Shown: in pieces, positions 33 to 37,623 of the stretch | Numbering within the stretch: position 1 is the stretch's first letter | Layout of the letters: every line of letters starts with the position of its first letter | NCBI GenBank assembly: GCA_040776945.1 | Contig: JAXGZN010000002.1 | Location: 416,001-480,000 of the forward strand | DNA: 64,000 bases | Direction: 5' to 3' | Origin: Methanomassiliicoccaceae archaeon | Lineage (GTDB): Archaea; Thermoplasmatota; Thermoplasmata; Methanomassiliicoccales; Methanomassiliicoccaceae | The notes under the pieces: model-generated | Databases searched by the model: none | The model's input: the letters and a program-made list of their open reading frames with translations, nothing else | Told to the model about the DNA's origin: nothing | Program-made: the position numbers and the translations under genes

Positions 33-1190
33 CTAGGCGCGCTCGATCATCCGATCGTAGGCCGAAGCGAGATCGGAGGCAAGCCGGTCCCACGAGTACC
101 GCAGAGCGTGGGCGGCGATCTCGGCAGCATCCCACTCACGCTCCAGCGCCTCATCGATCGCCGCGGCGAGCGCCTCGGCGTCGCCCGGAGGGCAGAGCAG
201 GCCCAAGCGGTCAGAGCAAATAACGTCCGGCACCCCGCCGACCTCCGTTCCGACGAACGGGCGGCCGCATCCCAGGCACTCGAACATCACCGTTGGGTTG
301 CCCTCTCCAAGGCTTGGAAGGACGAACACGTCGGCGGCGCTCATCCACCGCGCGATGCCGGAGGAAGGGAACGGCTCGGTGACCAGCCTAACCACCTTCT
401 CCAGCCCCAGCTGTCCTATCCGGTCCTGAAGCTGGCGCCGCAGCGAGCCGTCCCCCAGTATATAGAGCAAAATATCCTCGTGATGGCTGGCCACCTTGAC
501 CATGGCCTCCATGAGATGTGCGTGGCCTTTTACCGGCTCGAGGTACCCTACGGTTACCAGGACCTTACTTCCCCTGGGCATGCCAAGCTCTTCCCTGGCA
601 TCTCCCTTGTCCATGGGACGGAAGACCTTCGAGTCGAACCCGTTGGGGAGAGAGATGACCTCTGGACCCTCCCCCGCGATGCGGGTTATGGGGCCGATCC
701 ATGAGGGCGAGGTGACGATGACCGTCCCCGACCGTCCTAGGGCCATACGGACCATGGACCGTACAAGGGGTGACGCTCTGTCGTAGAACTCAACGAACAT
801 GCCGCCGTGGATGTGGAGCGCGACCTTGGAGCCGAGCCCATGCCGGGCCCACAGAACGTAAGGGATGTTCCGCAGGAAGCTGTAATAGGAAGAGGTATGG
901 ACGTGCGTGATGTCCGCTCGGTCCCCCCTCGACCGAAGAACGAACCTGAGCGCCGCCGTTAGGTCCCTGATCGGCTGAACCACCGCGTTGGATGCGCCGA
1001 ACCCTCCGGTGCGGTGGACGGTCACCTCGAAGCCCTCGCTTGGGAGCCGCTCCATCATGTTGCGCACGAAGTTGGCGACCCCTCCGTTGGGTGGGGGAAG
1101 AGGCCCTATCATCACAACCCTGCCGCCCCTGTGCCGCTCAACATCGGCGGCCATTACCAAATCCCTCCCGTCCGCATAATCGACGCTCAC
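33..1190 (-). CDS. Glycosyltransferase family 4 (GT-B)
   Basis: N-terminal PPPNGG motif, VGYLEPVKG, and C-terminal FVLPSLGEGNPTVMFEC (E-x7-E) signature. Confidence 0.92.
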   Translation of the reverse strand: MSVDYADGRDLVMAADVERHRGGRVVMIGPLPPPNGGVANFVRNMMERLPSEGFEVTVHRTGGFGASNAVVQPIRDLTAALRFVLRSRGDRADITHVHTSSYYSFLRNIPYVLWARHGLGSKVALHIHGGMFVEFYDRASPLVRSMVRMALGRSGTVIVTSPSWIGPITRIAGEGPEVISLPNGFDSKVFRPMDKGDAREELGMPRGSKVLVTVGYLEPVKGHAHLMEAMVKVASHHEDILLYILGDGSLRRQLQDRIGQLGLEKVVRLVTEPFPSSGIARWMSAADVFVLPSLGEGNPTVMFECLGCGRPFVGTEVGGVPDVICSDRLGLLCPPGDAEALAAAIDEALEREWDAAEIAAHALRYSWDRLASDLASAYDRMIERA

Positions 1191-1229
1191 CGCTCGGAGG
1201 GCGTGTCCCTTCGGACCTTCCTCCGACGG

Positions 1230-2993
1230 TCATCCAGGCGACCTCGCGTAGACCTTGAAGTCGCCACCGATGTACACGTGATCGACCGTGGTCCCGTAGT
1301 TCAACAGGACGAAGTCCTGTGGACCGAACTTCCCGGTCTGCGCCCAGGTCCGGGAGTACGCCTGCTCCTCGTATTCCGTGATCACCAAATAGACGCTGCT
1401 CAGCCCGCTGGTGTTGGACCTCAGGAAGGAACCGAAGTGGGCGGAGGTCTCCCGGTCGTTGGTGTAGATGTCGTAGTCCGTCCGCTTGTACGCCGAACCG
1501 TATATCAGATCGGCGTACCTCCACGGGTTCGTCCGGACCGTGTAGAGAGTATAGTCAATTGCGTCCTTGTCGGTGACCAACCAGTTCGATCCGGTCACTT
1601 CCGAACGGCTGATCGAGCCGTTGGGGAAAACAGTGTTGGGATCCTGATATGCCGTGAACACGGTGGACACCAGGGCAAAGACGATCACCACGGACACCAC
1701 GCGGGCGAGGGCCGTCCTCCCGGTGGTCCTGAGGACGTACAGCGCGTAACCCACCAGGGGTACGGTGAATATGACTATGAAGTTCAGATTGATCAGGCGG
1801 AACGGGTTGTGGGCATAGGTCATGAAGACGATGGCCATGAGGTACGCTCCGCCCACCAGGAACAGCCCCACCACCAGGGTCATGGGGTGCGTCCTCCAAC
1901 CCCGCCTGAATATCATGACGGCCGCCACCATCCCCATCAGGACGAACGCCAGGTCATCGGCCACGCACATGAGGACCGATCGTATGGTGGACAGGATGCC
2001 CATCCTGGACGCTTGGGACGACGCGCTGCCGAAGGTGGTGAAACCATCAGCAAAGCCGAGGAGCTGCTCCACGATGTTGCGCAGGTCCTTGACGAGCAGC
2101 GCGTGGAAGACTATCCAGCCGAAAAGGAGCACGAAGCCGTAGGCGATCATGTATGGGGAGATCGACCTGATCCTCCTCTTGGTGACGAGATCGTTGATCA
2201 GGACGACCCCCAGGAACAGCAGGACGGTCATCGCCACCAGGGGGTGGCCGATCACGAAGAATACGATGAACAGGGCCACCAGGCCCTTGTACCTGGCATC
2301 GCCGTCCATGCTCTTCCAGAGGATGAAGAAGAAGAGGGGAAGCATGAGGACGCACAGAGTCTCGTTGAACAGAGTGGGGATGAACCAAGCGAAGAAGATG
2401 GGCATGGAGGCCAGCATCGTGGAGGTTACGAACATCGGCCGCGATATGATCGTCCGGGCCCAGCACAGGATGCCGACGGTGTAGGCGGAGAAGAAAAGGG
2501 CCGGAAGGAACTGTGACATGGCGATCATGCCCTGCCCTGCCGCCTCGCCGGCCATGGACATGATGATGGAGGCGAACGGGTAGAAATTGAAGGACGGGAA
2601 ATGGCCCAAGTTGACGATGTCCTTGGCGTATCCCACGTAGGACAGGGAGTCCGTCCTCTCCAGATAGATGAAGCCCTTGTACACGTACAGGGTCATGAGC
2701 ACGAAGTTGGAGAGTATTATCTGGAACAGGCCTACGGACCAGAGGCGGGACCTCGTACCATAATAGGTGTAGAAGAGCAGGATGCCAGTGAGTTGGCAGA
2801 AGACGATGGAGAGCCAGAAGATCAAGGGCGTGCTGTTGTAGATCGAATACTCGTATCCCTTCATGGGATCAGAGTAGACGGCCAGTACAGCGATGGTCAG
2901 GGCCAGGAACCCCAGCGAGGAGATGAGGACGACGTACCGTTGCAGCCTGCGGTTCTCTGATATCTCCCTCATGGTCTCGAAGGTACCGGCCAT
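1230..2993 (-). CDS. Polytopic membrane protein of archaeal glycosylation loci (GT-C/polymerase-like)
   Basis: 587 aa with roughly 12 hydrophobic segments, an Asp-containing loop (ERTDSLSY...FYP) and a C-terminal soluble domain. It lies between a GT4 and a Wzm-like permease. Confidence 0.65.
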   Translation of the reverse strand: MAGTFETMREISENRRLQRYVVLISSLGFLALTIAVLAVYSDPMKGYEYSIYNSTPLIFWLSIVFCQLTGILLFYTYYGTRSRLWSVGLFQIILSNFVLMTLYVYKGFIYLERTDSLSYVGYAKDIVNLGHFPSFNFYPFASIIMSMAGEAAGQGMIAMSQFLPALFFSAYTVGILCWARTIISRPMFVTSTMLASMPIFFAWFIPTLFNETLCVLMLPLFFFILWKSMDGDARYKGLVALFIVFFVIGHPLVAMTVLLFLGVVLINDLVTKRRIRSISPYMIAYGFVLLFGWIVFHALLVKDLRNIVEQLLGFADGFTTFGSASSQASRMGILSTIRSVLMCVADDLAFVLMGMVAAVMIFRRGWRTHPMTLVVGLFLVGGAYLMAIVFMTYAHNPFRLINLNFIVIFTVPLVGYALYVLRTTGRTALARVVSVVIVFALVSTVFTAYQDPNTVFPNGSISRSEVTGSNWLVTDKDAIDYTLYTVRTNPWRYADLIYGSAYKRTDYDIYTNDRETSAHFGSFLRSNTSGLSSVYLVITEYEEQAYSRTWAQTGKFGPQDFVLLNYGTTVDHVYIGGDFKVYARSPG

Positions 2994-15021: not shown

Positions 15022-16374
15022 TCATTCGGCGGCAGCGTGGACCACGGACGTGCCCCATGCCGGGTTGGCGATGGCATGCTGGTGCATATAGGTCCCCATC
15101 GATCGGCGCACCATGATGCCATCAAGGGCCTCTCCTATGCCCGTACCTCGCAGGATGGAGAACCCGTAGGGGCCGGAGGGAAGCGGCTCCAGGCGGGAAT
15201 AATGGAACTCGTGGGCCCTGATCTCGGCCCCGGGGAACAGGAAGTTGTCCGGGGTCCCCACGGCCTTCACGTAAGCGAGGCCTTGTCGGTCACGTGTCAG
15301 CGTGGCCTGGGTGTCAAATATCCCGGCCATGTCATGCACCTTTCCGAAGGCATTTATGGATCGGCACATCGCCATGAGGCCTCCGCATTCGCCGTATACC
15401 AGCCGGCCTTCCTGGGAGAGCTGCCTGATGCCCTCGCGGAAATCACCATTGGCCTCCAAGGCCTCGGCATGGACCTCTGGATAACCGCCCCCTAGATAGG
15501 CCGCATCGCAGTCTGGGAGAGGCTCCCCCTCCGCAGGGCGGAAGGTCACCACCTTGGCGCCGGCGGCCTCCAGCGCCTCAAGGTTCTCTCTGTAATAGAA
15601 GCAGAAGGCGCGGTCACGAGGCACGGCGATGGTCACGCCCTTGCTCTCCTCCTCAACGTAGGGCACGCTCGTCTCGAACTCGGCCTGAGGTGCGGACCTG
15701 GCAACGTCCATCAGTCGCCCGAGGTCGATATCGGCAATAAGCTCCTCGATCTGGGCCATTAGGCCGGCGGGGTTGCTGGCATCATCTATCGTAAGGAGGC
15801 CGAGATGCCTCTCTGGAAGGCGCTCCCTCTGTCTCTCGATGGTGCCCAGGACCTCCGTGCCGGTGAGGGATTCGACCGCCTGCACGGCCTTCCGTCGGTG
15901 CCGGTCCCCGCTAACGTTGTTCAGTATGACCCCTGCGATGTCGACCTCTCGGTCCAGCATCTTGAAGCCCAGAACATGGGCCGCCGCGCTCTTGGCCAGA
16001 CTGCGGGCGTTCACTACCAGTACGACCGGGGCCCGGATGAACTTGGCTATCTCCGCGGTGGACCCGGTGTCCCCGGTGGCGGTCAGGCCGTCATATAGTC
16101 CTCTGACGCCCTCCACGATGGCGACGTTCGCTCCCTGGGACGACCATCCGAAGAGGTGTGTCAGCTTCTCCCGCTCCATGAAGAAGGAGTCCAGGTTCCT
16201 CGACGGCCGTCCAGTGGCAGCGGTGTGGTACATCGGATCGATGAAATCAGGCCCCACCTTATACCCCTGGACCTTCATGGAGCGGGCCAGTCTGGACATC
16301 AGGCCGGTGGCGATGACGGTCTTTCCCACCCCGCTGCCCGAGCCCGCTATCACCAGGCGAGGCGGGGCGATCAT
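15022..16374 (-). CDS. cfbB: Ni-sirohydrochlorin a,c-diamide synthase
   Basis: CbiA/CobB family (GSGVGKT, KVGPDFIDP, GECGG, HEFHYS) and last gene of the cfb operon. Confidence 0.92.
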   Translation of the reverse strand: MIAPPRLVIAGSGSGVGKTVIATGLMSRLARSMKVQGYKVGPDFIDPMYHTAATGRPSRNLDSFFMEREKLTHLFGWSSQGANVAIVEGVRGLYDGLTATGDTGSTAEIAKFIRAPVVLVVNARSLAKSAAAHVLGFKMLDREVDIAGVILNNVSGDRHRRKAVQAVESLTGTEVLGTIERQRERLPERHLGLLTIDDASNPAGLMAQIEELIADIDLGRLMDVARSAPQAEFETSVPYVEEESKGVTIAVPRDRAFCFYYRENLEALEAAGAKVVTFRPAEGEPLPDCDAAYLGGGYPEVHAEALEANGDFREGIRQLSQEGRLVYGECGGLMAMCRSINAFGKVHDMAGIFDTQATLTRDRQGLAYVKAVGTPDNFLFPGAEIRAHEFHYSRLEPLPSGPYGFSILRGTGIGEALDGIMVRRSMGTYMHQHAIANPAWGTSVVHAAAE

Positions 16375-18232: not shown

Positions 18233-19521
18233 AGGTACCCCTCCTTGATGCAGTGGACGAGCACTTTGTGCTTCTTCCTGACGTCCATCGGCCCTTCTAT
18301 CCTCAGGAACCCGGCGGCCTGGCGGTCAAGACCGGGCATGTTGATGATATACTGCCCCTTGATCGACGGGTGCTTGGAGAGCACCTTGTGAACGTCCTCA
18401 ATGACCAGTTTCTCGCAGACCTTCAGGTTTACAGGGTCCAGGGCCACTCCGATGTCCTCTTGCCCGTAGTTCCGCTCAAGGACGGTGATGTTCCAATCAA
18501 TGGACCCTGCGCTGACACCGGGGTTGCGCTCGCGGATGAGGAACGCGCCACCTTCGCGTGCGACGTCCCCTCGGCCGGGGACGCCCTTGAACGTTGAAAG
18601 GGAGCTCACCGCCTGCTCCATATCAAGACCCATCGCCCCCGCGGCGGCCAGGCCGGCCAATAGGGCGGTGGCGTAGCTCGGAGCCAGGAAGGTCCCCGGA
18701 AGCTGGACCGACGATACTCTCCCCTTCCACATCACCGTTAACAAGGCGCCCTTTCCCAGGACCAGCTTATCTGGGAGAGAGACGTCAAGGTCTCCTCCAG
18801 GGCCGAAGGTTATGGTCCTCGCTCCCTCCGGGACATGCGGCCCCCATAGGTCCCTTTCCTTCTCTGGACAGACCAGCACCTTGGCGGTCTGCGCCATCTG
18901 CAGCTTTCCGTGGAATGCCCGGCGGGTCCCGGCCGCTATGGGATAGTCGTCATCGAGGCCCGTGATCACCGAGACATCGGCAAGGCCGGTCCCTCCCAAG
19001 CTGACCTCGAACACTCCAACGTCGCAAGGCGGATGGTCGCGGGAGATCGAGAGGACCGATGGCGGGGCAATGCTCACCTTGTCAGCAAGGGCCCTCCACT
19101 CCCCATCAAAGTAGTGCCTCCCACGGCTGGTGTGCATCAGTGTTCGCTTTCCGGAAGAGGCCAGCATATGTCCCAGGACATGGCAGGCGGAGGTCTTCCC
19201 CCGAACCCCGGTGAGCTCGATCACCGGAAAGTCGAAGGAGGCGAGCTCTCCCACCGCCTGATGCGCGGTGATCCTGCGCCCCAGGTCCGCCGGTCCGATG
19301 AACCTGTCGGGACAGTGGACCGGGACAACGCCAAGATCGAAATGTTCTCCAGGCGAGTCATCGAGCACCCGTACTCCTTTGGCAGCGAGGCTCGCTTTCT
19401 TCTCGGCAGGGGCAGTGTGATATATGTCGACGGCGGTCACACTCGCTCCCCTCGAGGCGTACTCTAGCGCCAGAACCTCACCGCCGTGAGTGAGGTCCAG
19501 CACCAGGACCTTTTCATTCAT
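18229..19521 (-). CDS. cfbE: Coenzyme F430 synthase (Mur-ligase-like)
   Basis: VLDLTHGG, PVHCP, ELTGVRGKTS, FEVSLGGTG, DDYPIA, VCE motifs. Confidence 0.92.
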   Translation of the reverse strand: MNEKVLVLDLTHGGEVLALEYASRGASVTAVDIYHTAPAEKKASLAAKGVRVLDDSPGEHFDLGVVPVHCPDRFIGPADLGRRITAHQAVGELASFDFPVIELTGVRGKTSACHVLGHMLASSGKRTLMHTSRGRHYFDGEWRALADKVSIAPPSVLSISRDHPPCDVGVFEVSLGGTGLADVSVITGLDDDYPIAAGTRRAFHGKLQMAQTAKVLVCPEKERDLWGPHVPEGARTITFGPGGDLDVSLPDKLVLGKGALLTVMWKGRVSSVQLPGTFLAPSYATALLAGLAAAGAMGLDMEQAVSSLSTFKGVPGRGDVAREGGAFLIRERNPGVSAGSIDWNITVLERNYGQEDIGVALDPVNLKVCEKLVIEDVHKVLSKHPSIKGQYIINMPGLDRQAAGFLRIEGPMDVRKKHKVLVHCIKEGYL

Positions 19522-19523
19522 GC

Positions 19524-19922
19524 CTATGCCTGCTTCATCCGGGACCTGACCCTGTCGGCCAGGATCTGGGCGATGCGGTCATCGTCGCCTATGGGGTCGC
19601 AGTAGCGGAGAGTGACGGTCTTGCCATCTACGACCATCTTGGTCTCCCTCTCCCCCTTCTTCAGCCCGATCTCCCCGGGTATGTCCTCGGTGAGGTGGAT
19701 GCCCGATGCGAGGAAGCATGGCTGCACGTAGATCATGTCCACGCCCTGGTCGACCAAGGTCTTGATCCCGGTCTTGATGTCCGGCTCGTTCAGCTGCATG
19801 AACGCGGCCTCTACCGGTCCGAACTCATGGGACTTTGCCAACCGCGCGGCGGCCTTGGTCACGATCTCTTTGTTGAACTGCAGCTTGCTTCCATGCCCTA
19901 CTACAAGTACTCCGTTCTTCAT
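19524..19922 (-). CDS. cfbA: Sirohydrochlorin nickel chelatase (CbiX-S type)
   Basis: VGHGS, AFM..EP, PCFLASGIHLTEDIP, DPIG motifs and first gene of the cfb operon. Confidence 0.9.
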   Translation of the reverse strand: MKNGVLVVGHGSKLQFNKEIVTKAAARLAKSHEFGPVEAAFMQLNEPDIKTGIKTLVDQGVDMIYVQPCFLASGIHLTEDIPGEIGLKKGERETKMVVDGKTVTLRYCDPIGDDDRIAQILADRVRSRMKQA

Positions 19923-20226
19923 GTTCGAAATCCCCTTTGTCACTGACCGCCGAAGCGGCCAGGTCAGGATGACAATCTCTGATTATATAGCTTTCCTGAA
20001 ATCCTTGCCGATATCGGCGATGAGGTACTGACGAAAGGCCGGTCAGGCCCGCCCTTGTTCAATCGCCAGGTCAGTTTGATATCGGACCGGATCTACGCTT
20101 CGGTCCCATCCCCTCCTGTAAGGTCAGGATGCGCACGGCTGGTATCAGAGAGCATAACTATGGTCCGTGCCCCGGCGAAAGATCGAGAACATGTTCTAAA
20201 TAAATGATATGCTAAAAGCAACATGC

Positions 20227-20418
20227 ATGAACGACCATCATGCTCATACGCACAAGCATGAGCGGACCAAGCATACTCATGAGCACCATGAGGACGAGCA
20301 CCACACCCATGCACACTCCGGCGAGGAGGGCAGTGAGCCGCACACACACGAGCACGAGCATGCCGAGATCACCCACTCTCACCCTCATAAAGAGGGTAAA
20401 CATCACGGTAAAGAGTGA
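20227..20418 (+). CDS. Histidine-rich small protein (63 aa, 22 His), putative Ni/Co storage protein or chaperone
   Basis: MNDHHAHTHKHERTKHTHEHHEDEHHTHAHSGEEGSEPHTHEHEHAEITHSHPHKEGKHHGKE. TAAATAAA box ~25 nt upstream. Alternative start 20209. Confidence 0.8.
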   Translation: MNDHHAHTHKHERTKHTHEHHEDEHHTHAHSGEEGSEPHTHEHEHAEITHSHPHKEGKHHGKE

Positions 20419-20538
20419 TATACGAACCCTTCATCTGCGCTCAATCCCTTCCTTAGCGACAATAATGGTCTGAGGCACGGTACGGTCCAACACATATGCC
20501 GTTGCAGCTATCGATATGGCCTGAAGGCCTAGAACGAT

Positions 20539-20609
20539 AAAAAAAGATGGAGAGGAAACGGGCGGAGGAAACAATATGGCGATAGTTGACAGGTCTCCCG
20601 TTTCCCGTC
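20539..20609 (-). ncRNA. Candidate small regulatory RNA (~70 nt) with anti-RBS/anti-AUG loop
   Basis: TTTATAAA box at 20630-20637, 9-bp stem GGAAACGGG/CCCGUUUCC, loop containing GCCAUAUUGUUUCCUCC, and a U7 tract at the 3' end. Confidence 0.55.
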
Positions 20610-20620
20610 ATAGGTATTTC

Positions 20621-20647
20621 TTGCTACGATTTATAAATTCGTAATAC
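20621..20647. promoter_or_regulatory. NikR-type operator overlapping a TATA box
   Basis: Minus strand GTATTAC-gaatttataaatc-GTAGCAA (7-13-7 palindrome), with the same geometry as 37597-37623. Confidence 0.6.
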
Positions 20648-21191
20648 TAATTCATCGAAACAATGGCCTTCGCTTATAAGCACGACATCGTCCCCGATCA
20701 TCGCCCGGCGATCTACTTTCCGCTGCACCGGTCGCGTCGTCGGTTTCGTCCCCACACCGCTCCTCACGGCCCGTCGGCGAGATGTTGGACGAATATTGGA
20801 AAACCTCCTGCCGCGTTATAAAGGCGGCCTTTGTGAAGGCGGGGAAAGGATCGCGCCAAGTTCTCAGCGGATGCAGCCGCCCAGCAACATCATCATCCAT
20901 TCCGCATTATTCGACATCAGCATAATTGGCCTAGGAGCATGATAATTGAGAGGTACGCAGGCCCCATGTCACTCATAGGCAGGCATCGGGGCAGTCCGTG
21001 GAGAGGGCGGTTGCCGGCCTGGGTAGCGGAAGGCCGCTCCGGACAACGTTCTGGGTCCACGGTCCATCTTCGGATGCCGCGGAGAGATCGCCATCAGGCG
21101 GCCGAGGTCATACGCCATCCGACCCCGGCCCCATCAGTTCTCGCGGCCTTTTTAAATTCAAAGAAAGCTTCCGAACGGATCTCTTCCCCTC

Positions 21192-21213
21192 ATAAGTTGG
21201 ATGTTGCATCCAA
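21192..21213. promoter_or_regulatory. Palindromic operator TTGGATG-N3-CATCCAA upstream of the hem operon
   Basis: ATAAG-TTGGATG-TTG-CATCCAA next to an AAATAAATA element. A matching copy is at 34862-34883. Confidence 0.7.
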
Positions 21214-21271
21214 ATAAATAAGGGCATTATCTTATTACCGAGCTGAAATACGGTCGTGACAAGGGGATCAA

Positions 21272-21880
21272 ATGCTGCCGATATGGTTAGATCTGCATGC
21301 TCGGAAGGCGGCTGTCTTCGGAGGGGGCGCAGTGGGCAGGAGGAAGGCGAACTACCTGGCGGGAGAGGCCGAGGTCAAGGTGATCTCCAAAAAGTTCGTG
21401 GACGGTTTCCTCCCCCAGGTTCAGCTAGTAGAGGGAGAGATAAATGAACATCTTGTTCACACCATCGGTTGGGCAGACCTTGTTATCGCTGCGACCAACG
21501 ATCGGGACCTGAACGATGCCATCGCCGCGGAGGCGGCCGTCCAAGGCAAGTACTGCAACCGCGCTGACGGCGTGTCTACGTTCCTAATCCCATCATTGGT
21601 GGAGCGTGATAATTATAAGGTGGCGATCTCCACAGAGGGGCGAAGCCCAGGCATGTCCAAATACCTCCGCCTGGAGCTGGACAGGTTCCTTGGACGGAAA
21701 TACGACCTCATGGTGTCCTTGCAGGAGGAGCTGCGGGAGGCCGCCAAACGCAGCATACCTTCTCAGATGGAGAGGGAGAAGAAGCTCTGGCAGGTGCTCG
21801 AGGACCGTGATGTGTGGAGCGCCTTGGAGAACGATCTCCCGCGGGCCCGCGAACTGGCCATGCAGAAGTTGGTGGGATGA
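21272..21880 (+). CDS. sirC: Precorrin-2 dehydrogenase (SirC / CysG N-terminal / Met8-like)
   Basis: MLPIWLDL, VFGGGAVGRRK, IAATND, AISTEGRSP motifs. Confidence 0.88.
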   Translation: MLPIWLDLHARKAAVFGGGAVGRRKANYLAGEAEVKVISKKFVDGFLPQVQLVEGEINEHLVHTIGWADLVIAATNDRDLNDAIAAEAAVQGKYCNRADGVSTFLIPSLVERDNYKVAISTEGRSPGMSKYLRLELDRFLGRKYDLMVSLQEELREAAKRSIPSQMEREKKLWQVLEDRDVWSALENDLPRARELAMQKLVG

Positions 21881-23157
21881 TGGACTCTATCCTGAGCGCT
21901 CACATCACCCACAAACAGGCGCTGATGTCGGACATCGAAAAACTGGCCGAACTGGACCCATCAAGGCTCCTGAGGTCGGCGATCGGCCTGCCCGGGGCCA
22001 CCGAATGCGTCGCCCTTCGGACCTGCAACCGGGTGGAGATCTACTTGGCGACCAGCGAGCCGGTGAGGACCAGGAAGGCTCTTGAGGATCTCATCAACGG
22101 GTTGGTCCCCTTCGACGCGGACCAGAGCCTGGTGCAGTACCTGGCTAACAGGGACTCGGTGAAACACATCCTCAGGGTGGCAAGTGGCCTGGAGTCCATG
22201 ATCATCGGGGAGGACCAGATACAGTCTCAAGTGAAGGAGGCGTTCGAACATGCCGAGAAGGAGGGCACGGTGGGGCCGATGCTCTCGATAGTGTTCCGGA
22301 AGGCGATCTCCACCGGCAAGAAGGTACGCAGCGAGACCAGGGTCAACAAGGGCTGCGTTTCCGTTGGCTCCGCAGCGGTCGAGCTGGCCGAGGAGAAATT
22401 GGGGACGCTTGCGGGAAAGAACATCCTGGTCGTCGGGGCCGGGGAGATGGCCACCCTCATAGCTAAGCACCTGGTAGGGAAGGAGCCAAAGGCGATCTTC
22501 GTCTCAAACCGCACCTATGCAAGGGCGGTGGAGCTGGCATGGGTCCTTCACGGGAAAGCTGTAAGGTTCGACAACTTCATCGAGTTCATATCCCAGGCCG
22601 ACGTGGTTCTGGTGGCGACCTCGGCCACTCACATGATCCTCACCAAGGACCATATGGAGAAGGCGATGAAAGGGCGAAAGGGGAACTCCAAGATTATGGT
22701 CATCGACGTCAGCTTCCCGCGTAATGTCGAGCCCCAGGTCTCTGGCGTTCCCGGAGTGGAACTGTTCGATATAGACGGCCTGCGCGGGAAGGCGGAGGAG
22801 AACCTCCTGAGGCGCCGGGCGGAGATCCGCAACGCCGAGGCCATAATCGCCTCGGAGCTGAGCTCACTGGGCAAGCGCATCAAGGAGATGAAAGCGGACG
22901 AGATCTTGGCGCGCCTATACGGAAAATACTCGGAGATCAGGGAACGGGAGGTACAGAAGGCCTTGAACCGCCTCGCTTCCGGCAGCGAGCCGGCCGAGGA
23001 GGTCCTCAGGGACCTCGCGCAGGCAATGATGAAACGCTTCCTGGCCGATCCTACCAAGGTGCTGAAGGACGCGTGCCGGGAGGGTGAGATCGACATCATC
23101 GAGATCATGCAGGAGATATTCAGACTGGAGGGTGCGCTCGATGTATCCAGCAAATAG
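21877..23157 (+). CDS. hemA: Glutamyl-tRNA reductase
   Basis: [38 protein letters not shown] motifs. ATGA overlap with sirC. Confidence 0.95.
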
Positions 23158-27820: not shown

Positions 27821-29173
27821 TCAATAGACCTCTCCGAGGCATGTCCGGGACATGTTCCGCGCAAGGTCCAGGTCGCTTCCGAAGTGGAGGTGCATGTATG
27901 AGGCCATGGCTGCCTTCCTGATCATGCCGTCCATCGACCCATCGGCCCCCTTGGGCCTCGACAGCTCATAGCACATGTCCTGGCGGTGCGAGATTATCCT
28001 GGAATAGTGGAACACATGGCCCCTTGTCCTGCCTCCGGCAGTTGAAAGTAAGCAATCCTTGGTGAAGCGTGCCTCCACGTAGCCTAGCGCCTGCAGCTTC
28101 GAGGTCATCTCCACCTCGGCATCGAAGACACCGACCATCTTCCTGACCTCGCCGCCGAGGCCTCTCACAGACCGGCACAGGTACATCAGTCCACCGCACT
28201 CCGCGTAAACAGGCGTTCCTTCCTTTGCTCTCCTAAGCAGCGACTCGCGCATAGGGGCGTTCGATTCCAGCGCGTCCAGGTGAAGTTCGGGGTAACCCCC
28301 GCCGATATAATAGCCGTCAGCGTCCGGCAGGTCGCCCGCCAACGGGGAGAACTCCACTATATCGGCTCCCAAGGACCTCAGGATGTCTAGGTTGTCCTCA
28401 TAGTAGAAGTTGAAGGCAGCATCCCTTGCCACCCCCAGTTTGAAATCGCCTATTCTCTCAATGGGCGGCCCCTCCGTCGTCTCCCAATCTGGGGATTCGG
28501 TAGCGATGCTGACCAGGAGGTCGAGGTCCAGGTTGTCCTCCACCGTCTCCCTGATGACCTCGTACCTCTGGACGTTGTCCATCTCACCCGCCGGTACGAG
28601 GCCCAGATGCCTGCTCTCCAGACCGATCCCCTTGTTCTTGGGTATCCCCCCCAGGCTCACCAGGCCAGACCCTTCGATGGCCTCCTCGAGCATCTGCAGG
28701 TGACGCGGCCCGGCCACCCGATTGAATATGACCCCCCGGAGGTCGACCGCGGGGTCGAAGGAGCTGAAGCCTTTGGCGACCGCTGCCACGCTCCTTGCCG
28801 CGGAGGCCGCGTCCAGCACCAGTATAACCGGGCAACCGAGGGCCTTCGCCAGGTGGGCGGAGCTTCCCACCTCGTTCCTTCCGTCCAGACCGTCGTACAG
28901 GCCCATCGCCCCCTCCACGACGCTGACGTCCGCGCCCTCTGACGCTGCCTGGAACGAAACGGACACCCAATCCGGAAACATCCACGTGTCCAGGTTGCGG
29001 GACGCCCTTCCGGCGGCCTTTGTATGGTGCATGGGGTCCAGGAAGTCCGGGCCGGATTTGAACGGCTGGACCGCAAGCCCTCTTGCCTTCAGGGCCAAGA
29101 GCGTTCCGATGGTGATGGTGGACTTCCCTGTACCGCTCCTTTCCCCGGCGAGCATGAGCCTTGGCCGGAGCAC
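27821..29173 (-). CDS. cbiA: Cobyrinate a,c-diamide synthase
   Basis: SGTGKS, FKSGPDFLDP, EGAMGLYDG, AECGGLMYL motifs. End of the cbi operon and paralog of cfbB. Confidence 0.92.
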   Translation of the reverse strand: MLRPRLMLAGERSGTGKSTITIGTLLALKARGLAVQPFKSGPDFLDPMHHTKAAGRASRNLDTWMFPDWVSVSFQAASEGADVSVVEGAMGLYDGLDGRNEVGSSAHLAKALGCPVILVLDAASAARSVAAVAKGFSSFDPAVDLRGVIFNRVAGPRHLQMLEEAIEGSGLVSLGGIPKNKGIGLESRHLGLVPAGEMDNVQRYEVIRETVEDNLDLDLLVSIATESPDWETTEGPPIERIGDFKLGVARDAAFNFYYEDNLDILRSLGADIVEFSPLAGDLPDADGYYIGGGYPELHLDALESNAPMRESLLRRAKEGTPVYAECGGLMYLCRSVRGLGGEVRKMVGVFDAEVEMTSKLQALGYVEARFTKDCLLSTAGGRTRGHVFHYSRIISHRQDMCYELSRPKGADGSMDGMIRKAAMASYMHLHFGSDLDLARNMSRTCLGEVY

Positions 29174-36651: not shown

Positions 36652-36933
36652 TCAGGCCTTTATGGACTTCCTGAGCATGACCAGGCCATACACGACGAGC
36701 AGGGTGACGAAGAACCCGACGATCCCCATCAGAAGGGAGCTGAAGTAATTGGAGCCATAGTCCAAGGGAGCGGTCCAGACGGGCTCGCTCTCCTCGCCGG
36801 ACCCGTGCTCCTCCAGCGTCTTGTCCAGTCCGTCGGGCACACCGTCCGACACCAGGAAGAATCCGACAAGCCCGACGGCGAACAGCAGCAGGATCCCGAC
36901 AGAAGCGATGATGTATCGGCGGTCCACGTTCAC
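36652..36933 (-). CDS. PDGLE-domain ECF accessory protein (NikN-type)
   Basis: Two TM helices flanking PDGLDKTLE...APLDY. GTG start overlaps the cbiM TGA. Confidence 0.82.
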   Translation of the reverse strand: MNVDRRYIIASVGILLLFAVGLVGFFLVSDGVPDGLDKTLEEHGSGEESEPVWTAPLDYGSNYFSSLLMGIVGFFVTLLVVYGLVMLRKSIKA

Positions 36934-37580
36934 GCCCCCGCAGGCTTGAGGTTCAGTTCCAGCATCTCCGGCGAGACCTTGGCCAGGAAGAGCACCACTC
37001 CGGTAGTGACGATGGCCTCGCCGACACCGATCAGGGCGTGGTATCCCATCATGGCCGGGAACGCAAGCGCGCCAGTGATCCCGTACGTCCCATCTGAGAT
37101 GGAATAGCTTAAGGCCAGCTGGGCCGCGCACACCGTGGCCGCAATGAACACCGCGGCCCACGCCGCTACCGGCGTGCCCAGGGTGCGGTTCTTTCCGAAG
37201 AGCATCATCACCCCATAGGTCACCAGGGGCGCGATGATCGCCATGTTCAGTATGTTGAGGCCCAGCGAGGTGATCCCGCCATCGCCGAAAACAAGGCATT
37301 GGATGGTCAGGATGGCGGTGATTATCAACATGGCCGCGTACGGCCCCAGCAGTATGGTCGCCAACGCGGCCCCGATAAGATGGCCGGTGGTCCCCCCGCC
37401 TATTGGAAAGTTCAACATCTGGGCCACGAAAATGCCGGCGGCCAATATGGCCATCATGGGCATCGTTCTTTCGTCCAACCGCTTGCCTAGCTTCCAGAAC
37501 ATCAGACCCAGCCCGATGAGGGCCAAGATCCAACCGGCGATCCAGAGCTCGGGCGCCATTATTCCGTCCGCAATATGCAT
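36930..37580 (-). CDS. cbiM: ECF Ni/Co transporter S component (CbiM/NikM)
   Basis: N-terminal MHIADG metal-binding motif, plus GTTGHLIG, DGGITSLGLN, HALIGVGEA. Confidence 0.92.
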   Translation of the reverse strand: MHIADGIMAPELWIAGWILALIGLGLMFWKLGKRLDERTMPMMAILAAGIFVAQMLNFPIGGGTTGHLIGAALATILLGPYAAMLIITAILTIQCLVFGDGGITSLGLNILNMAIIAPLVTYGVMMLFGKNRTLGTPVAAWAAVFIAATVCAAQLALSYSISDGTYGITGALAFPAMMGYHALIGVGEAIVTTGVVLFLAKVSPEMLELNLKPAGA

Positions 37581-37596
37581 GAGCAACCCCTTACCC

Positions 37597-37623
37597 TTAT
37601 AACGAATAATTCTTTCGTGCTAC
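37597..37623. promoter_or_regulatory. NikR-type operator downstream of the TATA box of the ECF importer
   Basis: Minus strand TTTATACA, then GTAGCAC-gaaagaattattc-GTTATAA about 14 nt later. Same 7-13-7 geometry as 20621-20647. Confidence 0.6.

Follow-up and report, generated by a model that had tools for sequence, protein, structure and literature searches.

The DNA analysed here (the window) is a 64,000-nucleotide (nt) stretch of a Methanomassiliicoccaceae archaeon (GCA_040776945.1, contig JAXGZN010000002.1, positions 416,001 to 480,000), and the element at its positions 20539–20647 is well supported, by comparison with related genomes, as a NikR-gated small RNA (sRNA) gene. We consider it rather probable that the element is a separate sRNA gene on the minus strand, which would be repressed by nickel-loaded NikR and whose loop would pair with mRNAs. 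The analysis shows the features in the sequence, their conservation as a set, the operator common to the sRNA and nickel-uptake genes, the encoded NikR, and transcription of the region. The regulatory input (NikR and nickel) is well argued, and we infer it together with NikR binding, the strand and the ends of the RNA, the nickel dependence, and the pairing mechanism. The element lies in the 1,328-nt gap between cfbA and a sirC-like gene of the 2.17-Mb genome, which is labelled G000 (the window is G000:C2:416001-480000); G001, G002, and the further G numbers are the labels of relatives.

All the features listed for positions 20539–20647 in an earlier, sequence-only reading of this DNA were found as described, and its minus-strand string was exact. 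The parts of the element are as follows.

20621..20647, no strand assigned: 27-bp NikR-type operator TTGCTACGA-TTTATAAAT-TCGTAATAC (plus-strand letters), an imperfect inverted repeat with 3 mismatches and a 9/9 A+T spacer in the half-site scan
20637-20630, minus strand: TATA box TTTATAAA, read from the sequence, at the centre of the operator
20539..20608, minus strand: predicted small RNA of ~65–70 nt, with a putative start near 20606–20609
20605-20597, minus strand: 5′ stem arm GGAAACGGG, a 9-nt inverted repeat 100% complementary to CCCGTTTCC
20563..20596, minus strand: loop AGACCUGUCAACUAUCGCCAUAUUGUUUCCUCCG, 34 nt, from the fold
20564..20569, minus strand: UCCUCC, an anti-Shine-Dalgarno-like motif whose CCUCC core is invariant in 6/6 homologues
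20562-20554, minus strand: 3′ stem arm CCCGTTTCC (RNA letters CCCGUUUCC), a 9-nt inverted repeat
20546..20553, minus strand: single-stranded 3′ tail UCUCCAUC; CCUCCA is present in the tail of G004, G005, and G006
20545-20539, minus strand: T7 run, presumed archaeal terminator; T5–T7 at the equivalent place in 5/6 homologues, none in G001

Archaeal promoters have a TATA box centred ~26–27 nt upstream of the transcription start, and thus transcription is predicted to begin at ~20607, at the foot of the 9-bp stem. It would stop at the U7 run, giving an RNA of ~65–70 nt. The search of Rfam 15 (E≤10, positions 19500–22000) returned seven matches, all far below the gathering score, and the match at the element itself (RF01074, 18 bits for a threshold of 40) was not relevant. 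The element was not flagged by a simple terminator scan, whose loop limit is 3–8 nt.

The whole gap was searched by blastn against 41 genomes. The conserved piece was query 595–709 (window 20538–20652); otherwise, only short gene-proximal end stretches matched. The identity of the element was 83% in G002 and 72% in G005 and G004. A fifth copy was obtained in G006 with a shorter query, and a sixth, diverged copy with an 11-bp stem (GGAAATGGCGG/CCGCCATTTCC) was reached in G001 through its operator. The covariance model (R1) built from the six copies recovered exactly those six at E<1e-9, with the hit in this genome at G000:C2:436539-436608 (minus strand, 70.1 bits). Carriers were six of the 11 genus genomes, none of the 13 other family genomes, and six of the 151 order genomes (0/140 outside the genus). 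Eleven loci were retrieved by a metagenome pattern scan, one of which was the sRNA and was identical to the G006 copy. Two weak model matches (G000:C1:834089 and G002:C4:49319) were considered as paralogues and rejected, having no operator upstream.

The sequence-only reading proposed conservation in relatives as a check, and the promoter, hairpin, and T-run were indeed kept as a unit in the 6/11 genus genomes. The first block, GTATTACGA-(9 A/T)-TCGTAATAC, was nearly invariant among the copies and perfect in G004. The spacer between the operator and the stem was fixed in length and free in sequence (19 nt in five genomes and 20 nt in G001), and the stem measured 8–11 bp. CCUCC was found in the loop of all six copies as a conserved unpaired seed, and the loop motif CUAUCGCCA was kept in 3/6 copies and near-identical in two more. 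A short C/U-rich tail followed, within which G004, G005, and G006 carry a second CCUCC. It is this conservation in relatives, not the hairpin energy, that places the element above chance.

The operator block was invariant or nearly so in four aligned genomes. When it was read as 9-9-9 (GTATTACGA / TCGTAGCAA), six of the nine arm positions were complementary. Read as 7-13-7, it was GTATTAC-N13-GTAGCAA, and the perfect form GTATTAC-N13-GTAATAC was found in G004. The 7-13-7 palindrome around the TATA box in the sequence-only reading is thus present as a repeat, but it is imperfect here (4/7 in the second arm). GTATTAC-N13-GTAATAC matches the published architecture of predicted NikR signals, which are computational and bacterial (PMC545781). 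These signals are 27–28 bp inverted repeats upstream of nikMNQO, predicted as GTGTTAC-[N13/14]-GTAACAC in delta-proteobacteria and GTATGAT-[N13/14]-ATCATAC in enterobacteria (PMC545781). Some sites of the relatives read GTGTTAC or GTAACAC, and TGTTAC-N13-GTAACAC was found in G017. The likeness to the predicted bacterial regulons extends to the 27–28 bp repeat with 7-nt half-sites upstream of nikMNQO-type importers (PMC545781), whereas one symmetric base differs in most sites here, the A/T spacer is the TATA box, and a non-coding RNA gene would be a member of the regulon. The block is best read as a putative NikR operator, with the A/T spacer doubling as the TATA box.

The genome was scanned for the two 9-nt half-sites. 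With ≤5 mismatches, 19 sites were obtained, which is not above shuffles (23–39), and weight is therefore given to the best sites alone. These are the four with ≤4 mismatches; every one of them has an A+T-rich spacer, and they belong to the sRNA, cbiM, an SBP_bac_5 NikA-like gene, and a CbiA-family CooC-like ATPase gene. The site at cbiM lies in the window.

37597..37623, no strand assigned: further operator of this type, with 4 mismatches and an 8/9 A+T spacer; the open reading frame (ORF) of cbiM/nikM lies 10 nt downstream
36930..37586, minus strand: cbiM/nikM, first gene of a cbiMNQO-type Ni/Co importer operon (Pfam CbiM, E 2.7e-56)

The recurrence of the palindrome at the Ni/Co importer promoter, pointed out in the sequence-only reading, was thus confirmed at 37597–37623, just upstream of cbiM/nikM. 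The other two sites lie ~70 nt before the NikA-like gene (2e-74) and ~60 nt before the CooC-like ATPase gene, which is followed by a gene for a periplasmic binding protein. The core TACGA-W9-TCGTA occurred once in the window, compared with 0.01 expected; the looser TACGA-N9-TCGTA with ≤1 mismatch gave 17 sites compared with 58 in the control and was uninformative. Among the family genomes, the core ACGA-W9-THGTR gave 44 strand hits in 13 of 24 genomes, compared with three for the reversed control, and the core sites of the relatives precede cbiM, CooC-like genes, secreted proteins, and a pair of small membrane-protein genes. NikR, presupposed in the sequence-only reading, is encoded in the genome: three NikR_C proteins were found, two of which have both RHH_1 and NikR_C domains (best E 3.2e-29); an RHH and NikR_C protein is encoded at L016:1252-1788. 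The element of G001 is divergent from nikR itself. The locus maps a coherent candidate nickel regulon of Methanomassiliicoccaceae, including two family-less small membrane proteins.

Two further boxes were recorded. In G001, the box of the DUF4198 gene (L063:1770-1800) has its half-sites in the same orientation, GTAATAC-N13-GTAATAC, around a T7/TATA stretch, unlike the inverted repeats elsewhere. The gene G000:C2:696090-696995 (L022:591-1496) encodes the ATPase of an ABC transporter with a His-rich C-terminal tail and stands behind a weaker box (site F, 5 mismatches).

In the proposed mechanism, nickel-loaded NikR on the 27-bp repeat would compete with TBP/TFB and exclude them, because the TATA box lies in the middle of the operator. 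Nickel shortage would be the main condition for synthesis of the small RNA, and the importer genes with the same box would be under the same control. CCUCC in the loop corresponds to the sequence that pairs with Shine-Dalgarno sites, and the most likely mode of action would be base pairing of the loop with mRNAs, which would lower their translation or stability. Methanogens need much nickel for F430/MCR and hydrogenases, and a small RNA gene on a NikR-type operator would link nickel sensing to enzyme synthesis post-transcriptionally in archaea. In Methanothermobacter under nickel limitation, the cytosolic [NiFe]-hydrogenases nearly disappear (PMC12350162), and a word search for small RNAs in the text of that article returned no mention. 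The sequence-only reading was not aware of such a system in archaea; in line with this, none was found in literature searches on NikR and archaeal small RNAs, and no prior description of the element was found in a search on Methanomassiliicoccus small RNAs, in which none of the papers listed contained the genus name.

Four lines of evidence, namely the T-run, a G–U pair, the edge of conservation, and the operator spacer, favour the minus strand for the RNA. The T-run is found on that strand, whereas the plus strand has none after the hairpin. The G–U pair of the G005 stem would be a C–A mismatch on the plus strand. Conservation stops ~5 nt past the operator box on the side of the sirC-like gene. 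The spacer of the relatives, read in the RNA direction (CGAAATTATAAATCG), resembles CGAAATAATAAATCG, which precedes the CooC-like gene in the gene direction; compared with the CGA...TCG core of the box of that gene, 14 of 15 positions are identical in the relatives in the RNA direction. In addition, the 9-nt spacer has more A than T in the RNA direction in all six sRNA boxes, and more A than T in the gene direction in 12 of the 14 boxes tied to a gene start ≤125 nt away (boxes farther from any gene start were excluded from the count); as the differences are slight, this is weak evidence.

The closing stem was the minimum-energy fold in five of the six copies. One stem pair is A–U in this genome, G–U in G005, and G–C in G004; the G002 stem has lost one base from each arm; and a C–G pair is replaced by U–A within the longer stem of G001. 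When the alignment was fitted to the model, 83% of the cells paired, compared with 68% when the partners were slid by one column. Four of the nine stem pairs change on both sides, and the observed score was reached by 3 of 500 shuffles.

The position of the element inside the F430/B12 cluster, named in the sequence-only reading, is not conserved: the element adjoins cbiT in three genomes, nikR in one, and sirC in two. It is divergent from the sirC-like gene in G000 and G002, it stands between two small membrane-protein genes and cbiT-cbiL in G004, G005, and G006, and it stands between nikR and a DUF4198 gene with its own box in G001. No sRNA copy was found within 3 kb of cfbA in the loci of 17 relatives. 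This variation of context between genomes favours an independent unit over the leader of one operon.

Logan contigs from four metatranscriptome runs, which are unstranded, were aligned to positions 19400–21900. The region of the element is transcribed. RNA contigs covered the cfb operon up to 19887–19948, and a separate contig of similar depth covered 20238–20667 (X1), 20233–20595 (X2), 20237–20456 (X4), and 20261–20599 (X5). The contig ends at 20595 and 20599, which come from two studies, are near the predicted start and give a weak hint only. Stretches with no RNA cover (19950–20230 and 20670–21350, as well as 20457–20667 in X4) are evidence in neither direction. The separate contig includes, outside the conserved element, the following ORF.

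20209..20418, plus strand: convergent ORF for a His-rich protein of 69 aa, 22 of which are His (63 aa when started at the ATG of 20227), by translation; no Pfam family

This ORF is rich in HxH repeats, and its product could be a nickel-binding or nickel-storage protein. An A/T-rich box precedes the ATG at 20227, and the left contig edge (20233–20238) fits a leaderless plus-strand mRNA that starts at this ATG. The ORF was not found at this place in the relatives, where a protein search gave only weak matches, to His-rich stretches of longer frames in G004 and G001. The stretch in G004 lies ~2 kb from the sRNA copy of that genome.

The target search covered 5,305 candidate start regions, and 2,101 genes were called from codon usage with a simple caller. 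According to the sequence-only reading, the RNA would block mRNAs with Met-Ala starts, as its loop holds the reverse complement of a Shine-Dalgarno site, spacer, AUG, and GC. That complement is present, but it is merely the opposite strand of the same DNA and not an independent observation. The complement of AUG is not conserved, and targeting of Met-Ala starts is therefore not a trait kept among the copies. No start region paired above shuffled loops, so that the target test proposed in the sequence-only reading was negative at this resolution. The exact target pattern GGAGGAAACAATATGGC was found at 0 mismatches only in the locus itself, and at ≤3 mismatches in 13 places compared with four in the control, none of them compelling. 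A motif search for a Shine-Dalgarno site plus TGGCGATAG gave 140 hits, of which one eye-catching hit is internal to cbiL. The energies of a seeded whole-genome duplex scan were non-discriminating, and combined ranks over five loops indicated no common target. Of the overall sequence-only reading, a conserved minus-strand unit linked to a nickel operator is supported, and nickel sparing by blocking of Met-Ala starts is not supported.

Two pairings with mRNAs of nickel enzymes were noted as leads; their ranks were computed with G000 start regions as the background for all loops and with accessibility ignored, and they were picked after seeing the results. The best lead in G000 is the first: an internal site (~codons 33–48) of the gene for a 504-aa [NiFe]-hydrogenase large subunit (NiFeSe_Hases, 2e-35) forms 27 bp over nearly the whole loop (−36.1 kcal/mol, rank 3/2101), and 1 of 1000 shuffled loops was as good. 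The corresponding values for the G002 RNA with the G002 hydrogenase site were −35.7 kcal/mol and rank 9, and 2 of 1000 shuffles equalled this. The hydrogenase site did not pair with the loops of G004, G005, and G001 (rank >1000). The other lead is mcrB, for which a conserved UUG start behind GGAGGU was observed in the five genomes examined (L098:359-361; L099-L102); an in-frame TAA directly precedes the TTG in G004, which fixes the start there. The loops of G004, G005, and G006 pair with the mcrB Shine-Dalgarno site, start codon, and codons 5–6 (21–22 bp, −30 to −32 kcal/mol, rank 15–45, 1/1000 shuffles as good in each case); the G006 pairing used the G004 start region, as mcrB was not found in the 67%-complete G006. 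The mcrB start region ranked 459 and 663 with the G000 and G002 loops. Considering that there are several dozen nickel-related genes, these ranks are borderline, and the hydrogenase and mcrB pairings should be treated as leads, not findings. The second-ranked partner, an MCR_C-like ORF, was discarded because the site is internal and not a start region; in the relatives, it ranked 100–917.

These predicted pairings suggest a bolder reading, which we consider rather unlikely, that the element is a genus-specific NikR-gated riboregulator, made under nickel shortage, that targets the [NiFe]-hydrogenase large subunit in G000 and G002 and the Shine-Dalgarno site and UUG start of mcrB in G004, G005, and G006. 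If true, it would be an archaeal nickel counterpart of RyhB with a seed retargeted between sister clades.

Several results weigh against a separate, nickel-repressed sRNA gene that acts by pairing. NikR binding is argued from likeness to computationally predicted signals, not from archaeal experiments. No copy was detectable in five of the 11 genus genomes, some of which have the operator on importer genes. The covariation support for the stem is modest, as it comes from no more than six related sequences in an alignment that had been fitted to the structure. In G001, no T-run of at least five follows the stem. The unstranded contigs pass the T7 run to ~20233, and read-through or the convergent His-rich mRNA could be their entire source. 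The minus-strand fold (−17.0 kcal/mol, z −1.84) was equalled by 11 of 200 shuffles, which makes the hairpin alone ordinary, weak evidence, and the plus strand folds better (−20.9 kcal/mol, z −2.43, 1/200 shuffles as good). In the target search, the top score of ungapped loop pairing was 38, compared with 35.6 ± 3.3 (maximum 48) for 30 shuffled loops; the duplex energies of the start regions were distributed like those of six shuffled loops; and no predicted target was common to both clades.

Four other explanations were weighed. The NikR promoter may drive a longer minus-strand transcript, in which the hairpin and U-run would be a leaky terminator acting in cis as a leader or attenuator; read-through would run antisense to the His-rich gene and toward the cfb operon here, and toward cbiT-cbiL in G004, G005, and G006. 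The contigs that pass the T7 run and the missing T-run of G001 are in keeping with this, and a co-directional gene follows in five of the six genomes (cfbA after ~600 nt here, cbiT after ~140–240 nt in G004, G005, and G006, and the DUF4198 gene in G001). However, the downstream genes vary between the genomes, G002 has no co-directional gene for >550 nt, and in G001 a separate box and TATA belong to the DUF4198 gene. A TATA-like site stands at the end of the cfb contig (19887–19948), and a T6–T7 run is a strong archaeal stop signal. We regard a leader as unlikely. The better fold of the plus strand raises another explanation, which we hold to be quite unlikely, that the hairpin is the 3′ end or stabiliser of the His-rich mRNA and that the operator belongs to a different promoter, such as one facing the sirC-like gene. 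The His-rich ORF and the hairpin are joined in one RNA contig, which reaches 20667, the left contig ends (20233–20238) would suit the leaderless mRNA described above, and the sirC-like gene of G002 starts 240 nt from the box on its other side. Against it, the His-rich ORF is not beside the element in the relatives, the plus strand lacks a T-run after the hairpin, and conservation ends ~5 nt past the box toward the sirC-like gene; on the other side of the box, G004 and G005 have the 3′ end of a co-directional gene and thus nothing to drive.

That the hairpin arose by chance next to a real NikR box and does nothing as an RNA would agree with the shuffles that fold as well as the minus strand and with the lack of an Rfam match. 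This is very improbable, as the stem, loop motifs, and T-run are kept while the 19-nt spacer between the box and the stem drifts, and the stem persists in the G001 copy although its letters have changed. Equally improbable is that the plus strand encodes a translated peptide. A 22-aa ORF (20576..20644) exists there behind a strong Shine-Dalgarno site, GGAGGA, which lies 6 nt before the ATG and is kept in five close homologues. The start codon is not kept: in place of the ATG here, CTG was found in G002 and TTG in G004, G005, and G006. The plus-strand peptides are 22, 13, 12, and 13 aa long in frames shifted by indels, and only their first few residues are common; G001 has no start at that place, where only the CCUCC core (complement GGAGG) remains. 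On the minus strand, an ATG upstream of the predicted start is absent in G002, G004, and G006, and no conserved reading frame was found on either strand among the homologues. The hairpin was also considered as the intrinsic terminator or 3′ end of a gene lying upstream on the same strand, which was rejected because the sole upstream minus-strand ORF (20652..20900, 82 aa) is not conserved and the TATA/operator block separates it from the hairpin.

The predicted sRNA gene was compared with the closest known systems. RyhB, under Fur, is a metalloregulator-repressed sRNA induced under metal shortage. The element would share with RyhB the repression by a metalloregulator and the synthesis under metal shortage, but sparing is only hinted here, by the clade-specific predicted pairings with the [NiFe]-hydrogenase mRNA and mcrB. 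In Helicobacter pylori, the promoter of NikS (HPnc4160/IsoB) is bound and repressed by NikR with nickel, and NikS pairs with mRNA leaders and inhibits translation (PMC8322730). The proposed logic is the same, in that NikR would act at a box in the promoter and the loop would pair. In contrast, NikS comes from a bacterium, is transcribed from a sigma-70 promoter that contains a phase-variable T stretch, targets virulence genes, and has no sequence or structural likeness to the element, which has an archaeal TATA promoter inside the operator and whose NikR binding, nickel response, and targets are predicted only. Among archaeal sRNAs, loop 2 of Methanosarcina mazei sRNA154 masks the ribosome binding site of the glnA2 mRNA, and M. 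mazei sRNA41 masks ribosome binding sites in the polycistronic ACDS mRNAs (PMC5867862). Like the element, both are intergenic with anti-ribosome-binding-site loops, and the invariant CCUCC suggests the same mechanism here; they differ in responding to nitrogen, belonging to a different order, having no detectable homology to the element, and having experimentally shown targets. The element is not a homologue of NikS, sRNA154, or sRNA41. The circuit of a NikR-repressed sRNA is known in bacteria, and what appears new here is an archaeal, genus-restricted form with the TATA box in the operator.

The gap that holds the element is flanked as follows.

19943..19524, minus strand: cfbA (Pfam CbiX)
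21272..21880, plus strand: sirC-like gene (NAD_binding_7)

Position and sequence alone were the basis for naming the four ORFs that follow cfbA on the same strand cfbE, D, C, and B, and the ORFs after the sirC-like gene have a hem-like appearance. A TATA-like CTATATAATC on the minus strand (19950–19990) lies just upstream of the point where the RNA contigs of the cfb operon end, and the F430 operon appears to have its own promoter with no NikR-type box. Two paralogues of a CbiA/CobB-type amidase, 450 aa each, are encoded on the minus strand at 27821–29173 and 15022–16374; one belongs to the cfb operon and one to the cobalamin cluster.

Two adjacent genes for small membrane proteins (100 aa and 112–117 aa, no Pfam family) were observed just upstream of the sRNA in G005 and G004.

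L004:635-937 and 942-1280, plus strand; L005:1826-2471, minus strand: small membrane-protein gene pair, no Pfam family

The pair has its own NikR-type box in G004 and G010, and the two proteins are candidates for new nickel-uptake components.

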